From assembly GCA_045645645.1 (NCBI GenBank), contig JAZRJE010000007.1:34735-98734 (forward strand): a DNA stretch of 64,000 bases. The letters run 5' to 3'. The stretch is from Candidatus Enterousia sp. Its GTDB lineage: Bacteria > Pseudomonadota > Alphaproteobacteria > Rs-D84. The notes beneath the pieces are model-generated. The model was not told the DNA's origin, ran no database searches, and was given only the letters and a program-made list of their open reading frames with translations. Both the position numbers and the translations under genes were made by a program. Below, piece after piece: positions 3,766 through 22,034 of this stretch. Position 1 is the stretch's first letter. Every line of letters begins with the position of its first letter.

Positions 3766-3796
3766 TCCCTTGTCGGCGGGGTATTTGTTTTGTAAG

Positions 3797-3824
3797 ATAA
3801 AGGTCGTCGACAGACGACCTTTAT
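3797..3824 (+). terminator. 12-bp hairpin between rplT and pheS (weak terminator or processing stem)
   Basis: ATAAAGGTCGTC-gaca-GACGACCTTTAT; poor U-tract. Confidence 0.5.
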
Positions 3825-3858
3825 TCATATAAAGAAAAAAAGTTTTAGGGTAAATGTT

Positions 3859-15814: not shown

Positions 15815-16453
15815 TCATTGTTTTGCTGGACACCATTTTGCGACGGGACACCTTTCGCATTCTGGACGCAACGCTTTGCATACATATCGTCCATGTAAAA
15901 CCATTACATGGTTTACAATTGGATGATATTTTTTTGGGATTTTTTGTAGCAGTTTTTCTTCTACTTTTTCAGGTGTATTGTCTGTATCATCAACCCATCC
16001 ATATCGATGAGCGTTGCGAAAAACATGTGTATCAACGCCAATATTTGGCGCACCCCATAAAACATTACATATAACGTTCGCTGTTTTTTGACCAATTCCT
16101 GGTAATTTCATTAAAGTATCACGATTGCGATATTTATCAGGAAAATTATCTGTCATCTTTTCTGCGACCAAACGTTCGGCCAGCGCAATTATATTTTTTG
16201 CCTTGTTGTTAAAGAAAGAAATAACACGTATGTGTTCTTTTAATCCATCAATTCCCAAATCTAACATTTTTTGTGGTGTTGGTGCGATGCGGAATAATTC
16301 AGGCGTTACCTCATTTACTTTTTTGTCTGTCGCCTGAGCTGATAAAATAACCGCCACCGCAAAGTTAAATTCATTGGTATGATACAACTCTGACCGTATA
16401 GTCATATCGACTGTATCAGGGACTAATTCAAAATATCTTTGTGGCGTCAGCAT
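15815..16453 (-). CDS. nth: Endonuclease III
   Basis: AVILSAQATD, LPGIGQKTANV (HhH), VDTHVFR, C-x6-C-x2-C-x5-C [4Fe-4S] motif. Confidence 0.96.
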   Translation of the reverse strand: MLTPQRYFELVPDTVDMTIRSELYHTNEFNFAVAVILSAQATDKKVNEVTPELFRIAPTPQKMLDLGIDGLKEHIRVISFFNNKAKNIIALAERLVAEKMTDNFPDKYRNRDTLMKLPGIGQKTANVICNVLWGAPNIGVDTHVFRNAHRYGWVDDTDNTPEKVEEKLLQKIPKKYHPIVNHVMVLHGRYVCKALRPECERCPVAKWCPAKQ

Positions 16454-16665
16454 TATTTCTGCTTTTGTAACAGTTCCAGAATTTTTGCGTTTTGTTGTTT
16501 TACAATTCGCAAATTGTCCAGTATTGTATATTCTTCACGTGTTAAATTTAACTTACGTGAACATAACGATTCTCTTTTGCAAAGACCGTTTGCACGAAAA
16601 TCAGGACATTGGCAACCATAATCATTTTCTGGATAAAAAAATTCTTTACAATATTTTCCTGCCAT
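16453..16665 (-). CDS. Hypothetical 70-aa Cys-rich protein
   Basis: AGGA SD, TAATG overlap with the nth start, 5 Cys; fills an otherwise empty gap in a tight operon. Confidence 0.75.
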   Translation of the reverse strand: MAGKYCKEFFYPENDYGCQCPDFRANGLCKRESLCSRKLNLTREEYTILDNLRIVKQQNAKILELLQKQK

Positions 16666-16676
16666 TTTTTAATTCC

Positions 16677-17096
16677 TTATTTTTGATTTTCTTTATCACG
16701 ATGAACAAACTGTAACAGACGTGTAATCAATTCCATTTCTTCTGTCAAATAGATTTCATGGTCGCATCCACCCTCTCCTGGCATGTTTTCATGTTTTTTG
16801 CATTTACCACCTGGGGTCTGATGCGGACAATGTTTATCAATTTGACCACAATACAGATTATTCGGATATGTCTGCATCGGTTTAAGTGTTGTGGAAATAA
16901 TACGTGGACCAGAATTGTATATGTGATACAGATATTTAATCAAAAATCCACTTTCTGGATTTTCAACCACAACAGAATCAGGACAACGTTCTTGCTTATC
17001 CAACCTTTCTGTCAATTTGCATCGTCCATCTGGCAATTTTTCGGGACATTTTGTCCCGATGTTGCCACAGTATAAATATGGATATTTTAGATTCAT
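16677..17096 (-). CDS. Hypothetical 139-aa protein with two tandem four-Cys repeats
   Basis: AAGGA SD overlapping the ileS end; internal duplication with identical C-x6-C-x8-C-x11-C spacing. Confidence 0.8.
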   Translation of the reverse strand: MNLKYPYLYCGNIGTKCPEKLPDGRCKLTERLDKQERCPDSVVVENPESGFLIKYLYHIYNSGPRIISTTLKPMQTYPNNLYCGQIDKHCPHQTPGGKCKKHENMPGEGGCDHEIYLTEEMELITRLLQFVHRDKENQK

Positions 17097-17105
17097 ATTT
17101 TATCC

Positions 17106-20100
17106 TTATGCCTTATTTACAGATACATTCAAATTATATCCTTCGATATCAGTTGTGTATTCACCGTCACCAGATTTCATTTCGACAATCAATGCTTCGT
17201 GCATAATACGTTTTTTATGTACTTCGATTGCATTAACGATTGCTGGATCACCCGAATACGTCAGGGTTATTCTATCAGAAACATCCAAACCTGCTGTCTT
17301 GCGTGTATCCTGGATGAAACGCAATGCGTCATTTGCCAACCCTTCTGCGACCAGGTCTGCTGTCACTTCTGTATCCAGAACAACCACCGCTGTATTGTCT
17401 GGCAATGCCGCACCTGAAACCCCAGTCTTGACGGTTAAGCGGTTTTCAAATTCGTCTGCATTCATCTCGTGTCCACCAGCAACTAATTTGTCACCAACTA
17501 ATTCATATTCGCCACGTTTGACGGCTGGAATAATTTCTTTTAAAGCCCCACCCAGACGTGCGCCAATTTTTGGTGTAATCAAATAGATAAAGCTATCTGC
17601 AACTTCATCGATATTTTCAATGAATTTAATTTCTTTAACATTTAATTCATCACGAATGATGTCAGCGTATGCACTTAAATCTGGGCCTGCAACGGTCATA
17701 TTAGCCAACGGCAAACGATTACGTAATTTGTATTGTTCACGCAATTGTTTTCCAGTAGATACGACCATTTGTACACGTCGCATATCATCGACAATTTTTT
17801 TATCGAAGATTTCCGCAGTTGGAAAATCTGTTAGATGTACAGATTCTGCATCCGTTAAGTTGCGATAGATGTATTCGGAAACAAATGGTGCGAACGGTGC
17901 CAGAACACGACACAATGTTGTCATCACTGTGTACAGTGTATCAAAAGCATCTTGTTCTTCGTCCCAGAAACGTGCACGACCACGACGAATGTACCAGTTG
18001 TTCAAGATGTCCAAGAATCGAACAAATTCTTTGATTGCAACATCTGGCTTGTATTCATCCAGTGCTGATTTTACAACACCAATCAAGACGTTTAATTCTG
18101 CCAAGATATATTTATCCAGTGCATTTGTTGGATTTTGCATTTCTTTTGCAACGATATTTCCAGCATTTGCATACAGTGTAAAGAAATGATACGCATTCCA
18201 CAATGGTGTTAAGATAGTTTTTGTAGATTCAACGAACACTTTACCTTCTTTATCAACTGGCACTGGTTCAGCTTTCATAAAGTTTGACCCCAGCACGAAC
18301 AAACGAATAGCATCTGCGCCATATTGTTCTATTTGCTGTTCAGGGTTAACAAAGTTCTTTAATGATTTAGAAAATTTCTTTTTATTTTCATCAACAACCA
18401 TACCATTTGCAGAAACATTCTTAAACGCAGGTTTATCAAACAACGCTGTTGCCAGCACCATCAGTGCATAGAACCATCCACGTGTTTGGTCTTGTCCTTC
18501 GATAATATAATCAGCTGGGAAAGTTGCTTCAAAGCGTTCCTTGTTTTCAAATGGATAATGCAATGATGCCCATGGCATAGAACCAGATTCAACCCAACAA
18601 TCCAAAACATCTGGTATACGTTTCCATCCATCCTTTTCCAGTTTATCTAATGTTGGACGATGCAGGTCAGATACTTCTACACCAAAGAATTCTTCTAATT
18701 CAGCAATTGAGCCAAACACTTTGTATTCACCGTCTTTTTCCCAAATTGGTAATGGCATCCCCCAGAAACGATTACGTGAAATTGACCATGGACGTGCCCC
18801 TTCTATCCAGGTACGGAAACGTTCGCCAGCACTTGTCCAATTAACCAGATTATTATTTGCAATCAGTTTATCCTTGATTTTTGGTACGTCAATATACCAA
18901 GAATCTGTTGCACGATAAATTAACTTTTCTTTTGAACGATCGCCAAATGGATAGTTGTGTTTGTATTGTTCTTTCTTAACCAAACGACCATTTGATTTTA
19001 ACCAATCCAGTATCGCTGGTGTTGCTACAAATATATTTTGACCTGCAAAATCAACAACTGTTTCATCAAAGTTACCATATGTATCAACGTTTAATAACAC
19101 TGGGAATTTTGGATCAATATTTTTTGCTGCCCAAAAGTCATCTGCACCGTATGCAGGTGCGATATGAACAATACCTGTACCATCACCATCGGAAACATAG
19201 TCCGCTGGAATTATTTGGAACAGTAAATCAGATTGTCCCGCATAGTATGGAAACAACGGCGTGTAATGCATGCCAGCTAATTCAGCACCTGTTAAGCGCC
19301 CTATTTCCGTTGCATTTGCGAATTGTTTTTCATATGCCTTTAAGCGACTTTCTGCAACAACATAAACTGCGCCATCATTATCCTGCATACGCAGATATGT
19401 CATATTTGGATTAACAGCCAGCGCACTATTTGCAGGCAATGTCCATGGTGTTGTTGTCCATGCAATTGCACGATCACCATTTTCTAATTCAAACCAAACT
19501 GTGACTGCATCATCAACAATTTCACGATAATCACTGGATGCTTCGGAATTTGAAATTACCGTACCATTAACCCAGTCATATGGATTAACGCTGTAGTCTT
19601 TGTACAACAGACCTTTTTCATACAAAGACTTTAATGTCCACAACATTGATTCCATATAATCTTTATTCATGGTTTTATAACCATATCCATCGCCAATATC
19701 AACCCAGCGACCCATACGTGCAATAAATGCGTTCCATTCATTTGTATATGTCATAACATCGCTGCGACACATATCGCAAAATGCCGCAATACCATCATCT
19801 GCAACAATATCTTTGGCAGATTTACCAACCTTTTTTTCAACAGAATTTTCGGCTGGCAAGCCATGACAATCCCAACCTAACTCACGTCTGACATAGCGAC
19901 CCGACATTGTCTGGAATCGTGAAACCATATCTTTGACCACAGACACCCCTAAATGTCCCCAATGTGGCAAACCATTAGCAAATGGTGGGCCGTCATAGAA
20001 ACTAAATGGATGTCCCAACTTTGTTTTTTCTAATGTTTTATGAAACGTGTCGTTTGCACGCCAATAGGCTAATAATTCATGTTCTAATTCTGGGAAATTA

Positions 20101-20129
20101 GCACGTGGGTCTGTTTTTGGATATGACAT
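17106..20129 (-). CDS. ileS: Isoleucine--tRNA ligase, type 2 (eukaryote/archaea-like clade)
   Basis: DGPPFANGLPHWGH, GWDCHGLP, WTTTPWTLPAN, WSISRNRFWG, EGQDQTRGWFY, KFSKS; 1007 aa with a long C-terminus and no IleRS1 zinc finger. Confidence 0.95.
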   Translation of the reverse strand: MSYPKTDPRANFPELEHELLAYWRANDTFHKTLEKTKLGHPFSFYDGPPFANGLPHWGHLGVSVVKDMVSRFQTMSGRYVRRELGWDCHGLPAENSVEKKVGKSAKDIVADDGIAAFCDMCRSDVMTYTNEWNAFIARMGRWVDIGDGYGYKTMNKDYMESMLWTLKSLYEKGLLYKDYSVNPYDWVNGTVISNSEASSDYREIVDDAVTVWFELENGDRAIAWTTTPWTLPANSALAVNPNMTYLRMQDNDGAVYVVAESRLKAYEKQFANATEIGRLTGAELAGMHYTPLFPYYAGQSDLLFQIIPADYVSDGDGTGIVHIAPAYGADDFWAAKNIDPKFPVLLNVDTYGNFDETVVDFAGQNIFVATPAILDWLKSNGRLVKKEQYKHNYPFGDRSKEKLIYRATDSWYIDVPKIKDKLIANNNLVNWTSAGERFRTWIEGARPWSISRNRFWGMPLPIWEKDGEYKVFGSIAELEEFFGVEVSDLHRPTLDKLEKDGWKRIPDVLDCWVESGSMPWASLHYPFENKERFEATFPADYIIEGQDQTRGWFYALMVLATALFDKPAFKNVSANGMVVDENKKKFSKSLKNFVNPEQQIEQYGADAIRLFVLGSNFMKAEPVPVDKEGKVFVESTKTILTPLWNAYHFFTLYANAGNIVAKEMQNPTNALDKYILAELNVLIGVVKSALDEYKPDVAIKEFVRFLDILNNWYIRRGRARFWDEEQDAFDTLYTVMTTLCRVLAPFAPFVSEYIYRNLTDAESVHLTDFPTAEIFDKKIVDDMRRVQMVVSTGKQLREQYKLRNRLPLANMTVAGPDLSAYADIIRDELNVKEIKFIENIDEVADSFIYLITPKIGARLGGALKEIIPAVKRGEYELVGDKLVAGGHEMNADEFENRLTVKTGVSGAALPDNTAVVVLDTEVTADLVAEGLANDALRFIQDTRKTAGLDVSDRITLTYSGDPAIVNAIEVHKKRIMHEALIVEMKSGDGEYTTDIEGYNLNVSVNKA

Positions 20130-20155
20130 AATTTACTACTCCGTATTTTATTATT

Positions 20156-20203
20156 AAAAAAAGGCGCATATGCGCCCCAGCCACCGCCAAAGCGCAGTCA
20201 GCC
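20156..20203 (-). promoter_or_regulatory. Attenuator RNA: protector, antiterminator and intrinsic terminator upstream of ileS
   Basis: Minus strand GGCUGACUGCGCUUUGGCGGUGGCUGGGGCGCAUAUGCGCC-U7. Terminator stem GGCGC/GCGCC; upstream UGCGC can pair with GCGCA in the terminator 5' arm. Confidence 0.8.
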
Positions 20204-20204
20204 A

Positions 20205-20237
20205 TTATTTAATAATAATTATTGTTACCTGTTTCAT
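20205..20237 (-). CDS. ileS leader peptide MKQVTIIIIK
   Basis: ATG AAA CAG GTA ACA ATA ATT ATT ATT AAA TAA: four consecutive Ile codons directly before the attenuator. Confidence 0.8.
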   Translation of the reverse strand: MKQVTIIIIK

Positions 20238-20253
20238 TTTTTAACTTAATTTC

Positions 20254-20329
20254 TGGTGCCGGTGATAGGACTTGAACCTACGACCCCCTCATTACGAATG
20301 AGATGCTCTACCAGCTGAGCTACACCGGC
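20254..20329 (-). tRNA. trnT: tRNA-Thr(CGU)
   Basis: 76-nt cloverleaf GCCGGTG...TTCAAG...CACCGGC-ACCA, anticodon loop TT-CGT-AA. Confidence 0.96.
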
Positions 20330-20390
20330 ACAACGCCCATGACTATAGACTATATTTATCACAATTTCCAGTGGTTTTTAGTTTGGTTTA

Positions 20391-22034
20391 TTAATTTTTA
20401 ATCTTACGCAATACAACCATAATGCCTGCTGGTGTCATACCAGGAATACGCGATAAATCTGCAATGTTTTCTGGACGTGTGGCACTTAACTTTTCAATCA
20501 GTTCATTTGTTAATCCTGGTAATCCAGTATAGTCAAAATTACTGGGGATTTTCATGTTTGCGTCACGTTTATATGCAGCGATTTCGCGCTCATTGCGTGC
20601 AATATATCCAGCATAAAATTTATCGTTTTCTGCAAATATATCTTTTTTTAGATTGTATAACAGTTTGTATTTTTCTGCAGATAATAATCCTAAGTTAACA
20701 GCAGTTTTACCCAGTCGTTTTATTGCGTTGTCTGCGCGCAGATTTAATCTGTATTCTGCACGTGATGTGAACATACGATATGGTTCATCAACCCCCAGTG
20801 TGGTTATATCATCAATTAAAACCCCAATCATAGCATTGGTTCTGTCCAGAATTAAAAATTCCTGATTTAAAGCGAATGCGGCGGCATTTGCCCCTGCGAC
20901 TAATCCTTGGGCTGCGGCTTCTTCGTACCCAGATGTGCCGTTAATTTGTCCTGCAAAGAACAAGTGAGGTATATCTTTGCTTTGTAGCTTATCATTTAAT
21001 GCGCGTGCATCAATAGCGTTGTATTCAATTGCATATCCGTATCGTGCAATACGTGCATTTTCCAAGCCTGGAATGGTACGAATCCATTTGTCTTGGATTT
21101 CTGCCCCAAAACTGGTTGATATGCCATTTGGATAAATTATATCACTGTTATAACCTTCTGGTTCCAAGAAAACATGATGAGATGTATGTTCTGGAAATCG
21201 CATAACTTTATCTTCCAGACTTGGACAATATCTGGGGCCTGTACCGACAATATCACCATTATACATAGGTGCATTTTTTATATTTTCACGAATTATATTA
21301 TGTGTTATTTCATTTGTATGTGTAATGTAACATGGACAGTGAAAATTATTATCATTGTCACCTGTGTCAAACCAATCATGTGGTGTGTCTGGTTCTTGAA
21401 TTTCACATACAGACCAGTCAATAGAATCACGGTAAATACGCGCAGGTGTTCCTGTTTTTAAACGCAGAATTTTAAAGCCGTTTTTAAGCAATACATCTGA
21501 AATGTTTTTATCTGCAGCTTGGTATGTTCCGTCATCTTGTAAGCGGCCAGATGAGATTTTTTCATCACCACGTGTCACGACGCCATCTAAAAAAGTCCCA
21601 GTTGTTAACACGATAGATTTAGTTAAATATTCATTGTTAACAAGTTTTTTTTCAATATCTAATTTTGTAACAGGTTCATATTTTATTTCCAGATTTTCAT
21701 ATTCTGATAAAATATCAAGTATTGCATTATGATATAAATCGCGATCAATTTGCGCACGCAGTGCTTGTGTTGCGGCACCATGTGTTGCGTTTAAAGTTCG
21801 CCAATGGATACCTGCTTTATCTGCGGCGCGCCCCATAACGCCCCCCAGTGCAGTCATTTCTGCCACCATTTGTGATTTACCAGGTCCCCCAATACTTGGG
21901 TTGCAAGACAATGCCCCCAGATCACTTTCAGTTTGGGTTATCAGTAATGTTTTTGCCCCACGTCTAGCAGATGCTGCTGCGGCCTCAACCCCAGCATGTC
22001 CGCCACCAATAATGATTACATCATAATTTTTCAT
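20391..22034 (-). CDS. mnmG: tRNA uridine-5-carboxymethylaminomethyl modification enzyme (GidA), shortened
   Basis: GGGHAGVEAA, SCNPSIGG, RLKTGTPARI, GPRYCPSLEDK, AGQINGTSGYEEAAAQG, YRMFTSRAEYRL. Confidence 0.96.
   Translation of the reverse strand: MKNYDVIIIGGGHAGVEAAAASARRGAKTLLITQTESDLGALSCNPSIGGPGKSQMVAEMTALGGVMGRAADKAGIHWRTLNATHGAATQALRAQIDRDLYHNAILDILSEYENLEIKYEPVTKLDIEKKLVNNEYLTKSIVLTTGTFLDGVVTRGDEKISSGRLQDDGTYQAADKNISDVLLKNGFKILRLKTGTPARIYRDSIDWSVCEIQEPDTPHDWFDTGDNDNNFHCPCYITHTNEITHNIIRENIKNAPMYNGDIVGTGPRYCPSLEDKVMRFPEHTSHHVFLEPEGYNSDIIYPNGISTSFGAEIQDKWIRTIPGLENARIARYGYAIEYNAIDARALNDKLQSKDIPHLFFAGQINGTSGYEEAAAQGLVAGANAAAFALNQEFLILDRTNAMIGVLIDDITTLGVDEPYRMFTSRAEYRLNLRADNAIKRLGKTAVNLGLLSAEKYKLLYNLKKDIFAENDKFYAGYIARNEREIAAYKRDANMKIPSNFDYTGLPGLTNELIEKLSATRPENIADLSRIPGMTPAGIMVVLRKIKN

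Follow-up and report, generated by a model that had tools for sequence, protein, structure and literature searches.

To our knowledge, leader-peptide attenuation of an aminoacyl-tRNA synthetase (aaRS) gene is experimentally established essentially only for pheST. The E. coli pheST attenuator, with its leader ORF pheM, has clustered cognate codons, hairpins that form alternatively and, directly upstream of the synthetase gene, an intrinsic terminator; the Phe codons of pheM lie within region 1. The thrL, ilvL and ivbL leaders (thr, ilvGMEDA and ilvBN; Rfam Thr_leader and similar) use Ile codons as sensors, hairpins 1:2, 2:3 and 3:4, and termination by default. Rare codons in such leader runs sharpen the sensing, as CUA does in the leu leader. 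T-boxes require no translation: their RNA pairs with uncharged tRNA and senses it directly. Characterised cognate amino-acid controls of aaRS genes, such as the pheST attenuator and the T-boxes, are negative feedbacks, and ileS of E. coli is controlled by growth rate.

For ileS, T-boxes are described in Firmicutes and translational T-boxes in Actinobacteria (PMC1262725). In Caulobacter crescentus an "ileS leader CDS" (CCNA_03934) was found by means of ribosome profiling, named as such and mentioned in passing as a negative control, with no mechanism given (Schrader et al. 2014, PMC4117421).

Here we analyze a 64,000-nt stretch of DNA from Candidatus Enterousia sp. (the window), for which a first-pass annotation had proposed a complete ribosome-mediated attenuator between a tRNA-Thr gene and ileS. 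Its coordinates and sequences for all parts proved correct when checked on the window sequence. The parts are:

20342..20370, minus strand: promoter-like site of tRNA-Thr, TGGAAA-17-TATAGT (consensus scan; putative function)
20254..20329, minus strand: tRNA-Thr, anticodon CGU, CCA encoded (ARAGORN; Rfam tRNA, 70.2 bits)
20238..20253, minus strand: A-rich spacer of 16 nt from the tRNA 3´ end to the leader ATG (sequence)
20205..20237, minus strand: leader ORF MKQVTIIIIK*, 10 codons and UAA (ATG AAA CAG GTA ACA ATA ATT ATT ATT AAA TAA)
20211..20222, minus strand: Ile run AUA AUU AUU AUU, codons 6-9 (sequence)
20179..20203, minus strand: P1ext, protector (anti-antiterminator) hairpin GGCU-g-ACUGC/GCGGU-GGCU (folding)
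20171..20196, minus strand: AT, antiterminator helix UGCGCUUUGGC/GCUGGGGCGCA, 11 bp (4 G-U) with a GGUG loop
20156..20178, minus strand: T, intrinsic terminator GGGGCGC-AUAU-GCGCCUU followed by a U-tract (terminator scan)
20139..20142, minus strand: Shine-Dalgarno sequence of ileS, GGAG, 3´ of the terminator (sequence)
17106..20129, minus strand: ileS, the regulated gene, isoleucyl-tRNA synthetase of 1007 aa (translation; PF00133, PF08264 and PF19302, precomputed; relatives named isoleucine--tRNA ligase)

By its architecture the element is a genuine leader-peptide attenuator. With pheST it shares the cognate codon run, the alternative hairpins, the terminator just before the synthetase gene and the class of the regulated gene; it differs in amino acid, lineage and sequence, and in that its ORF has only 10 codons and would be read from an RNA that is leaderless or derived from a tRNA precursor. 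The thr and ilv leaders precede biosynthetic operons and are longer, with codons of several amino acids mixed, whereas here Ile alone would be read and the gene is that of the charging enzyme. The Caulobacter ORF, likened by name and position alone, is also a small translated ORF upstream of an alphaproteobacterial ileS, but that ileS lies in another gene context. T-box leaders of ileS have in common with the present one the gene, tRNA-Ile charging as the signal and the choice between antiterminator and terminator. The comparison with Gram-positive T-boxes drawn in the first-pass annotation is nevertheless beside the point, the organism being an alphaproteobacterium. Neither a T-box nor any other Rfam family was detected on the leader, at E up to 10 (window 19800-20700) or at the gathering score (relatives); the positive control, an ileS locus of Clostridiales (L071), gave a clear T-box with 113 bits. 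An ORF MEKHIIII* upstream of that Clostridiales ileS was set aside, as it precedes a bona fide T-box and is probably due to chance. The first-pass annotation further knew of no description for this lineage. We likewise found none in the literature of an Ile leader before ileS in the Enterousia lineage, but the ORF named in Caulobacter gives the idea some precedent within Alphaproteobacteria.

Scanned for further leader ORFs that combine an amino-acid run and a terminator, the window yielded no credible case. No Phe leader was found for pheS of the window (3859, plus strand), and a Phe-rich ORF (3881-3825) was rejected as its leader since it is antisense to the pheS start.

The three hairpins compete for the same strands. 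P1ext pairs the variable spacer after the stop codon and ACUGC with the invariant GCGGUGGCU. AT would sequester the 5´ strand of the terminator, its UGCGC, within the 11-bp helix, being complementary to the terminator's GCGCA. GGGGCGC is common to AT and T, ACUGCGC and GCGGUGGCU are common to P1ext and AT, and the doubly used strand GGUGGCUGGGGCG is invariant, its partners being variable. The conserved G-rich strand occurs once in the window. From the U-tract to the ATG of ileS (20129) there are 26 nt in the window, and ACGGAG recurs before ileS in most relatives. The −1 frame is open through the attenuator; we considered it as a frameshift candidate and dismissed it, as there is no canonical slippery site. 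This open frame explains over-long ileS calls in some assemblies: some annotations extend ileS through the element, giving products of 1027-1031 aa, and pipelines miss the element.

For comparison we used 17 distinct Enterousia-type ileS loci, several statistics being based on 15 of them. The full module precedes ileS in all 17, in constant order: the 10-codon ORF, a spacer kept at 7-9 nt, P1ext, AT of 10-11 bp, and T 22-37 nt before ileS. The poly-Ile uORF pointed out by the first-pass annotation is thus conserved in relatives, with four to five consecutive Ile codons in every locus (17/17) and the consensus M(K/I)Q(T/V/A)(T/I/A)IIII(K/R)*. Its ATG, UAA and length are invariant (17/17), there are no internal indels, and indels appear directly after the stop. 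Changes are confined to codons 2, 3 (synonymous), 4, 5, 9 (synonymous ATT to ATC) and 10 (K to R), the synonymous ones including CAG/CAA and ATT/ATC. Sequence conservation starts at the leader ATG, and the genes 5´ of the module vary (mnmG, acyl-ACP thioesterase, PagL, OmpA-like, RND membrane-fusion protein, pheT, YbaB, OmpH and others). Between species the 82-nt core is 87% identical, as against 57% codon identity at conserved IleS residues. Of the 60 codons in the Ile run (15 loci), 59 match ATA-ATT-ATT-ATT, the lone change being a synonymous ATT to ATC; conserved Ile positions within ileS share one codon in just 51% of pairs, ATC accounting for 37% of the Ile codons of ileS. Since the module is kept before ileS in 17 of 17 loci with unrelated upstream DNA, it is not a product of chance.

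Transcription reaches the module in two ways. In five of the 17 loci, the window included, tRNA-Thr(CGU) lies directly upstream of the leader. The A-rich spacer, 15-20 nt long in the other four of these loci, is in the window devoid of a Shine-Dalgarno sequence and too short for a promoter. CTGGAAAT...TATAGT is found again upstream of the tRNA in three of them (L161, L163 and L165), and in L166 CTGGAAAT is present with a differing −10-like hexamer (TTAAAG). The tRNA-Thr promoter is probably the sole one that feeds both leader and ileS in the window genome. Because the window leader lacks a Shine-Dalgarno sequence and sits on a tRNA precursor, its translation is an assumption. In the remaining 12 loci the tRNA is absent and a promoter lies upstream. 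TTGnnn-17-TAnnnT ends 7-8 nt (in one locus 10 nt) before the ATG in 10 of 10 tabulated promoter-type loci, and the two others (L173 and L174), judged by eye, show a like arrangement. As the promoter ends so close to the ATG, the leader mRNA of promoter-type loci is probably leaderless. Of the first-pass suggestion that the terminator of the tRNA gene may double as an Ile sensor, the sharing of the terminator holds within the subclade of the window, where T is the sole terminator after tRNA-Thr and serves both units; it does not extend to the 12 loci with a promoter instead.

Folding yielded P1ext, AT and T as mutually exclusive pairings in silico, in agreement with the alternative structures foreseen in the first-pass annotation. 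AT is the minimum-free-energy structure of the full leader, and in 15 sequences 95.8% of its pairs are kept, with one-sided changes only and no double compensatory change; a C-to-U change in L008 retains both AT (as G-U) and T (as U-A). When RNA reaching up to the U-tract is folded, the minimum-free-energy structure includes P1ext in 11 of 15 loci, window included, and P1ext is the best tail-free fold in 15 of 15. In 14 of 15 loci it starts 1-3 nt downstream of the stop codon. Only 78.5% of its pairs hold at fixed alignment columns, because the register shifts; compared with the mean of shuffled spacers, native ones gain 2-6 kcal of stability in each of the 15 loci. T is 100% paired in the 15 sequences, with one compensatory change (C-G to U-A) and a freely varying loop; across loci it has a GC-rich stem of 5-7 bp, a tetraloop and U5-U8, and would be expected to terminate. 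Covarying stems, which the first-pass annotation had named as a test, are thus represented by one pair in T and none in AT or P1ext; covariation is weak and uninformative because the element is nearly invariant. An 11-bp A-U duplex of the Ile run with the U-tract and AAUAAUAA, seen in the full-length fold, was rejected as the switch, since it needs RNA past the termination point and is limited to the tRNA-linked subclade.

We propose, with somewhat better than even confidence, that the element is a ribosome-mediated transcription attenuator which sets the share of upstream transcription continuing into ileS, and that its logic is homeostatic. In the window genome, transcription would arrive from the tRNA-Thr promoter. 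The nascent leader would fold P1ext first, GGGGCGC would be left free, and T would form and stop the polymerase at about 20156; this default event would also end the tRNA-Thr transcript. A translating ribosome would unwind P1ext from its foot. Once its leading edge is about 4-9 nt beyond the stop, the strand set free would zip into AT, the 5´ strand of T would be sequestered, and the polymerase would proceed into ileS. With the edge at least 10 nt past the stop, the first bases of AT would be covered and T would re-form. Since slow Ile codons (AUA and three AUU) precede Lys and the stop, arrival and dwell of the ribosome would depend on charged tRNA-Ile, the product of IleRS. When Ile-tRNA-Ile is short, the ribosome would linger on the last Ile codons with P1ext open and AT uncovered, resulting in read-through and more IleRS; when it is ample, the ribosome would be at the stop codon or gone, and T would form. 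Induction on Ile-tRNA shortage seems the likeliest response and is offered as a proposal. What the analysis shows is the parts themselves, how well they are conserved and, in silico, the pairings open to them; translation of the ORF, pausing, ribosome positions and direction of the response are what we infer. Among public sequencing runs the organism was seen in DNA runs only, the single RNA run giving no usable coverage.

The position of the ribosome was also modelled, on the assumption that its leading edge is 11-12 nt from the first A-site base. The modelled equilibrium probability of T, P(T), is 0.98 when no ribosome is present or when its leading edge has not passed the stop; it is about 0.5 at an edge of +7 to +9 (0.06-0.2 in seven loci) and about 1 at +10 or more. 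The barrier from P1ext to AT amounts to 12-18 kcal without a ribosome and to about 6 kcal at an edge of +7 to +10. The Ile codons span 6-18 nt upstream of the stop. As 6 nt separate the end of the run from the stop, and the hairpin begins 1-3 nt after the latter, modelled stalls on the first three Ile codons do not reach P1ext, and termination is predicted; P(T) for Ile stalls is 0.86-0.98 overall, a result that depends on the footprint uncertainty of 1-3 nt. A stall on the fourth Ile codon (edge +3/+4) would open 1-3 bp at the foot of P1ext, with P(T) of 0.86-0.88 and a barrier of 10-11 kcal. AT is favoured only at an edge of +6 to +9, that is, with the A site on Lys or the stop. According to the model, termination would be the default state, and read-through would occur only with a ribosome on the last one to three codons.

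The classical thr/ilv/pheST architecture claimed in the first-pass annotation can thus be upheld in part. The ORF with its Ile run, the protector hairpin, the antiterminator and the terminator are conserved as a unit, but the geometry is non-classical in that the first hairpin comes only after the Ile codons: unlike in pheM, the run ends before the stop and region 1 begins after it. Read-through caused by a stall on the Ile run is plausible physiologically, and the modelling does not cleanly agree with it. For a ribosome at the stop codon, the outcome flips between AT and T within a single nucleotide (+9 versus +10). This lies inside the footprint uncertainty, so the direction of the response is not derivable from sequence.

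The same parts could work by reversed logic, a reading we regard as unlikely, albeit worth serious attention. Translation would then license read-through, and shortage of Ile-tRNA would lower ileS transcription. Untranslated or late-translated RNA would terminate through P1ext and T, a timely ribosome on Lys or stop would let AT form, and IleRS synthesis would be coupled to successful decoding of Ile in a feed-forward, growth-rate-like manner. This is the most direct outcome of the modelling, in which AT appears only with the A site on Lys or stop and stalls on Ile1-Ile3 equal the absence of a ribosome; the 10-codon ORF and its distance to T also roughly fit a ribosome close behind the polymerase. 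The price would be that an essential enzyme comes under positive feedback, in which a fall in IleRS causes more stalling and hence a further fall in IleRS, and we know of no cognate control of an aaRS gene (pheST, thrS, T-boxes) that runs in this manner. Where the spacer measures 7 nt (two loci, L035 and L170), moreover, a stop-codon ribosome has its edge at +9 and P(T) is already 0.98-1.0, and a sensor of shortage would be well served by codons as slow, and as strictly kept, as AUA and AUU.

An unlikely variant would be a timer-type attenuator, with the Ile run as a delay line upstream of the switch and Lys/stop as the decisive codons. Timely Ile decoding would license ileS, and the logic would be reversed or non-monotonic. 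If this were true, mild shortage would induce ileS and severe shortage would shut it off, a control of aaRS genes of a kind not described so far. In a wider view, Ile-run leaders before ileS, seen here in two unrelated designs in gut Alphaproteobacteria, might form a recurrent, undescribed class with leaderless loading of the sensing ribosome as a common theme.

A second Ile-leader design occurs in other gut alphaproteobacteria (L003-L006 and L082; IleS 46-47% identical). There, a related ileS has a short ORF ending in ...IIIP* at a distance of about 100-115 nt on its 5´ side; next comes a hairpin, AUCCCC-UAA-GGGGAU, with the stop codon inside its loop; a long-range stem from the start region to the tail may also form. 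It differs from the Enterousia leader in its unrelated sequence, a 5´ UTR of about 40 nt, an irregular U-tract and synonymous variation of the Ile codons. Such Ile-run ORFs, varying between ATT and ATC, speak against the improbable alternative of a leader bound by a protein or tRNA (for example, in IleRS autoregulation), which would choose between AT and T and leave the ORF incidental or an aid to ribosome loading. Nucleotide conservation of the whole 82 nt, exact Ile codons included, does exceed the needs of coding for Ile, and covariation cannot settle which helices matter. On the other hand, start, stop and length of the ORF are invariant and indels avoid it, promoters stand at leaderless distance from the ATG, and the Rfam searches described above returned no family on the leader.

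It is very improbable that T is just an ordinary terminator of the tRNA-Thr (or other upstream) unit beside a chance AT-rich mini-ORF, with ileS expressed by leakage or from its own promoter. T is good by itself and is followed by an A/T-rich stretch. Runs of four Ile-type codons are also not rare in the window (nine observed against 4.3 expected at 38% GC), so the Ile run alone could be a matter of chance. However, the ORF and both upstream hairpins are kept in the 12 tRNA-free loci, always directly before ileS, no conserved −35/−10 pair was found in the 22-37 nt between U-tract and ileS of the relatives, and conservation of the core far exceeds that of synonymous sites; the comparative data already contradict this reading. 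Equally hard to credit is the idea that the ORF, co-transcribed with ileS, serves to make a small hydrophobic peptide (MKQTTIIIIK) acting in its own right: the peptide is well conserved in sequence, but it has ten residues and no partner genes, its ORF is always joined to the hairpin/terminator module and ileS, and conservation at the codon level, not at the amino-acid level only, points to a role in cis.

Taken together, the Ile attenuator before ileS is a real and apparently undescribed member of the textbook class of attenuators. With 10 codons and 82 nt it would represent a minimal natural attenuator, whose natural input takes two forms, a leaderless transcript or the 3´ trailer of a tRNA precursor, and a compact model for converting ribosome position into a termination decision. 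The strict conservation of this leader in a gut alphaproteobacterial genus with reduced genomes suggests that small genomes keep a cheap, protein-free feedback on tRNA charging.

The first-pass annotation placed a complete attenuator before ileS, and inspection of the window found all of its listed elements in their positions:

22034-20391, minus strand: mnmG, first in order, upstream of the promoter-like site of tRNA-Thr
20370-20342, minus strand: promoter-like site TGGAAA-17-TATAGT
20329-20254, minus strand: tRNA-Thr(CGU), ending in CCA
between tRNA-Thr(CGU) and the leader ORF, minus strand: A-rich spacer of 16 nt
20237-20205, minus strand: leader ORF ATG AAA CAG GTA ACA ATA ATT ATT ATT AAA TAA (MKQVTIIIIK-stop)
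between leader ORF and terminator, minus strand: G+C-rich segment with alternative folds
20178-20156, minus strand: terminator GGGGCGC-AUAU-GCGCCUU plus U-tract (terminator scan)
between U-tract and ileS, minus strand: 26 nt with a GGAG Shine-Dalgarno sequence
start at 20129, minus strand: ileS, 1007 aa

Runs of four Ile-type codons are unremarkable in DNA of 38% GC (9 seen in the window, 4.3 expected), so this observation alone does not exclude chance. Our comparison draws on related loci, homologous proteins and the contigs encoding them. The IleS of the window is 84% identical to that of four MAGs of Candidatus Enterousia, an uncultured gut alphaproteobacterial genus, and its next relatives are other gut Alphaproteobacteria (46-48% identity); the Gram-positive frame of reference adopted at first is thus inapplicable. 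For comparison, 17 distinct loci with ileS of the Enterousia type were assembled; their IleS shares 83-92% identity with that of the window.

Conservation of the poly-Ile ORF upstream of ileS is complete in this set. A 10-codon ORF, M(K/I)Q(T/V/A)(T/I/A)IIII(K/R)-stop, starts 103-119 nt 5´ of the ileS ATG in 17 of 17 loci and is followed in each by the same set of hairpins and terminator. Among these species, codons are identical at only 57% of same-amino-acid ileS residues and at 51% of its conserved Ile residues; synonymous sites of ileS are close to saturation. The 82-nt leader core is 87% identical. Its Ile codons read ATA-ATT-ATT-ATT in 59 of 60 cases, the one exception being a synonymous ATT-to-ATC change, and Ile codon usage within ileS is ATT 50%, ATC 37% and ATA 12%. 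The aligned relatives have zero indels inside the ORF, and the only codons that vary are 2, 4, 5 and 10 (Lys/Arg at the last of these), besides synonymous changes at 3 (CAG/CAA) and 9. The spacer right after the stop varies in sequence and length (7-9 nt). This pattern would be expected of a translated regulatory ORF, translation itself being predicted. Constancy at the codon level further suggests that specific slow codons are selected in the Ile run: decoding of AUA falls to a minor, lysidine-bearing tRNA and that of AUU depends on G-U wobble, and an established parallel is the use of rare CUA codons in the leu leader of enterobacteria. Sequence comparison thereby confirms the leader as a real element under strong selection.

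A strain variant in a public gut metagenome run (X1) carries a substitution and small indels, all of them within the post-stop spacer (window 20199-20204), the segment that also varies between species. Public gene calls at two loci (L173:1201-1272, L174:1201-1260) stretch ileS by 20-24 codons through the attenuator, to products of 1027-1031 aa, because the G-rich hairpins contain no stop in one reading frame; these calls are an annotation artefact that hides the leader.

Since the leader is present in 17 of 17 loci while the sequence upstream of it differs, the conserved unit is the module "leader plus ileS". In five loci (window, L161, L163, L165, L166), tRNA-Thr(CGU) lies 15-20 nt before the leader ATG and is preceded by varying genes; the other 12 (L001, L002, L008, L035, L167-L174) have no tRNA upstream. 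Promoter spacing was tabulated for ten of the tRNA-less loci: in all ten, 7-8 nt (10 nt in one locus) separate the end of a TTGnnn-17-TAnnnT promoter from the leader ATG, and L173 and L174 look alike in this respect, judged by eye. Given this spacing, the mRNA of tRNA-less loci probably starts on the AUG or no more than 1-2 nt from it, i.e. it is leaderless. The tRNA-Thr link is a derived feature of the window's subclade. There, as originally proposed, the attenuator terminator doubles as the tRNA-Thr terminator, since no space is left for a separate promoter.

On the other side of ileS (window 16453-17096, minus strand) directly follows an ORF of 137-139 aa, which recurs in all closest relatives fetched (L161-L166); in some (L161, L165) a second one of 70-76 aa comes after it. 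Neither has a Pfam match. Their recurrence in the closest relatives supports them as putative real genes; Enterousia loci at a greater distance lack them or have other sequence in their place.

Folding recovers both predicted states of the leader, a protector hairpin (P1ext) with the intrinsic terminator (T) and an antiterminator helix (AT), with competition among the three helices. AT, formed by UGCGCUUUGGC and GCUGGGGCGCA, sequesters the 5´ strand of T and is the minimum-free-energy fold of the whole leader. In P1ext, the variable spacer plus ACUGC is paired with invariant GCGGUGGCU(G). For RNA ending at the U-tract, the length available when the choice is made, 11 of 15 loci, the window among them, have P1ext together with T as their minimum-free-energy structure, and P1ext is the best fold in 15 of 15 when the 5´ strand of T is kept free. 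Fourteen different spacers pair, with register shifts, with one invariant P1ext strand, and at each locus P1ext is 2-6 kcal more stable with the native spacer than with shuffled ones on average. The dual-partner strand GGUGGCUGGGGCG is invariant, as is typical of a switch. Of the stems for which covariation had been anticipated, T (paired in 100% of alignment cells, with a freely varying loop) shows a single compensatory change, C-G to U-A in L008, and AT (95.8% paired) has one-sided changes only. With so little variation in the element, formal covariation is weak; the proposed structural model rests on conservation, energetics and one-sided substitutions.

In the tRNA-linked subclade (window 20130-20222, minus strand), pairing of the Ile-codon run with the U-tract end and AAUAAUAA can give an A-U duplex of 11 bp. 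It appears in the full-length minimum-free-energy fold and could be relevant to read-through transcripts only.

As long as the 3´ strand of T is still missing, AT is the more stable helix, at about -16 kcal compared with -10 to -13 kcal for P1ext in most loci, and in L170 and L172 they are nearly equal; the estimated barrier of refolding from P1ext to AT is 12-18 kcal. Because P1ext is transcribed first, it would act as a kinetic trap, and termination would be the default. We mimicked the ribosome leading edge by progressive masking of the RNA from its 5´ side, counting from the last base of the stop codon.

Mean equilibrium probability of T, P(T), and mean P1ext-to-AT barrier by edge position
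Edge 0 or upstream: P(T) 0.98; barrier about 14 kcal
Edge +3: P(T) 0.86; barrier 11 kcal
Edge +6: P(T) 0.80; barrier 8 kcal
Edge +7 to +9: P(T) about 0.5 (0.06-0.2 in seven loci); barrier about 6 kcal
Edge +10: P(T) 0.96; barrier about 6 kcal
Edge +11 and beyond: P(T) 0.98-1.0; AT forms no longer

Predicted edge by A-site codon, assuming a toeprint distance of 11-12 nt from the first A-site base
Ile1-Ile3: -6 to +1
Ile4: +3/+4
Lys: +6/+7
Stop: +9/+10

Judged by both modelled series, read-through would require a ribosome at the very end of the leader ORF. The range of permissive positions is narrow in the model, and its upper boundary would be set by the conserved 7-9 nt spacer.

The first-pass annotation invoked the classical thr/ilv/pheST architecture. 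The attenuator parts agree with it, but the codon placement does not: in trp, his, phe and pheST attenuators the regulatory codons lie inside region 1, whereas here the Ile run lies upstream of the switch. Two directions of response are conceivable. Firstly, in a homeostatic mode, if Ile-tRNA is short, the ribosome would linger on the last Ile codons, keeping P1ext open and AT uncovered; with ample supply, T would form either when the edge of a ribosome at the stop invades UGCGC or when the ribosome departs and P1ext re-forms. Secondly, a timely ribosome at Lys or stop would permit read-through and stalling would lead to termination. This is the most direct outcome of the modelling, but it would impose positive feedback on an essential enzyme. 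To our knowledge, cognate control of aaRS genes is negative feedback in all characterised cases; for this reason, and because slow codons seem to be selected, read-through upon Ile-tRNA shortage is the preferred direction if the attenuator is ribosome-mediated, and the reverse is rather improbable. The two readings are about 1 nt apart in ribosome footprint, which puts direction beyond the reach of sequence analysis.

That the element is a ribosome-mediated attenuator of ileS reading Ile decoding is, in our judgement, quite probable. A protein-binding leader and a functional micropeptide are both disfavoured, as the ORF-like conservation pattern and the leaderless promoter spacing speak against each. 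Rfam searches, in which a Clostridiales ileS locus gave a clear T-box as positive control, exclude a T-box and other known RNA families, and the 12 loci that bear the leader but no tRNA contradict an ordinary tRNA terminator next to a chance ORF.

A second, unrelated Ile-leader design precedes ileS of other gut Alphaproteobacteria (IleS 46-47% identical). Its ORFs lie at approximately L003:2858-2905, L004:2864-2911, L005:2860-2904, L006:2874-2918 and L082:1366-1410, 127-143 nt before the start of the tblastn match, itself a few codons inside ileS. They end in IIIP-stop (MLQNFIIRSVFIIIP, MCRFYIRTIPAIIIP, MCTFNIHIISIIIP, MRFIYIHSGSIIIP, MPLFYKNITFIIIP), with synonymous ATT/ATC variation at the Ile codons. 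A conserved hairpin, AUCCCC-UAA-GGGGAU, has the stop codon in its loop and is followed by a U-rich tail which in at least three loci pairs with the start-codon region (AUGUGCA:UGCACAU, AAAAAGAUGC:GCAUCUUUUU, UGCAAAAA:UUUUUGCA). About 40 nt upstream there is a TTGAC-type promoter. Short upstream ORFs with at least three consecutive Ile occur in 22 of the 165 type-2 ileS loci scanned, and all except L052 and L071, where they are probably due to chance, fall in the Enterousia-type or second-design clade. A canonical T-box (113 bits) precedes a Clostridiales ileS of the type-2 family (L071:2729-2945), so related ileS genes are under two different RNA controls in different phyla.

In the rplT-pheS intergenic region of the window (3766-3858, plus strand) there is a hairpin, AAAGGTCGTC-GACA-GACGACCTTT. 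This region holds no Phe-rich leader ORF, so the genome is without a counterpart of the pheM-type attenuator that E. coli has at the corresponding position.

The literature has a passing mention of a Caulobacter "ileS leader CDS (CCNA_03934)" (PMC4117421) and describes ileS T-boxes in Actinobacteria and Firmicutes (PMC1262725). As the first-pass annotation had supposed for this lineage, our full-text search found ileS nowhere described as the target of an Ile leader-peptide attenuator. With translation of its ORF predicted, the leader-peptide attenuator class would gain a new target gene, ileS, and a new lineage. Two features of the element are unusual: the Ile run sits upstream of the switch, and the RNA that carries the element would be either a leaderless transcript or a tRNA-Thr precursor.
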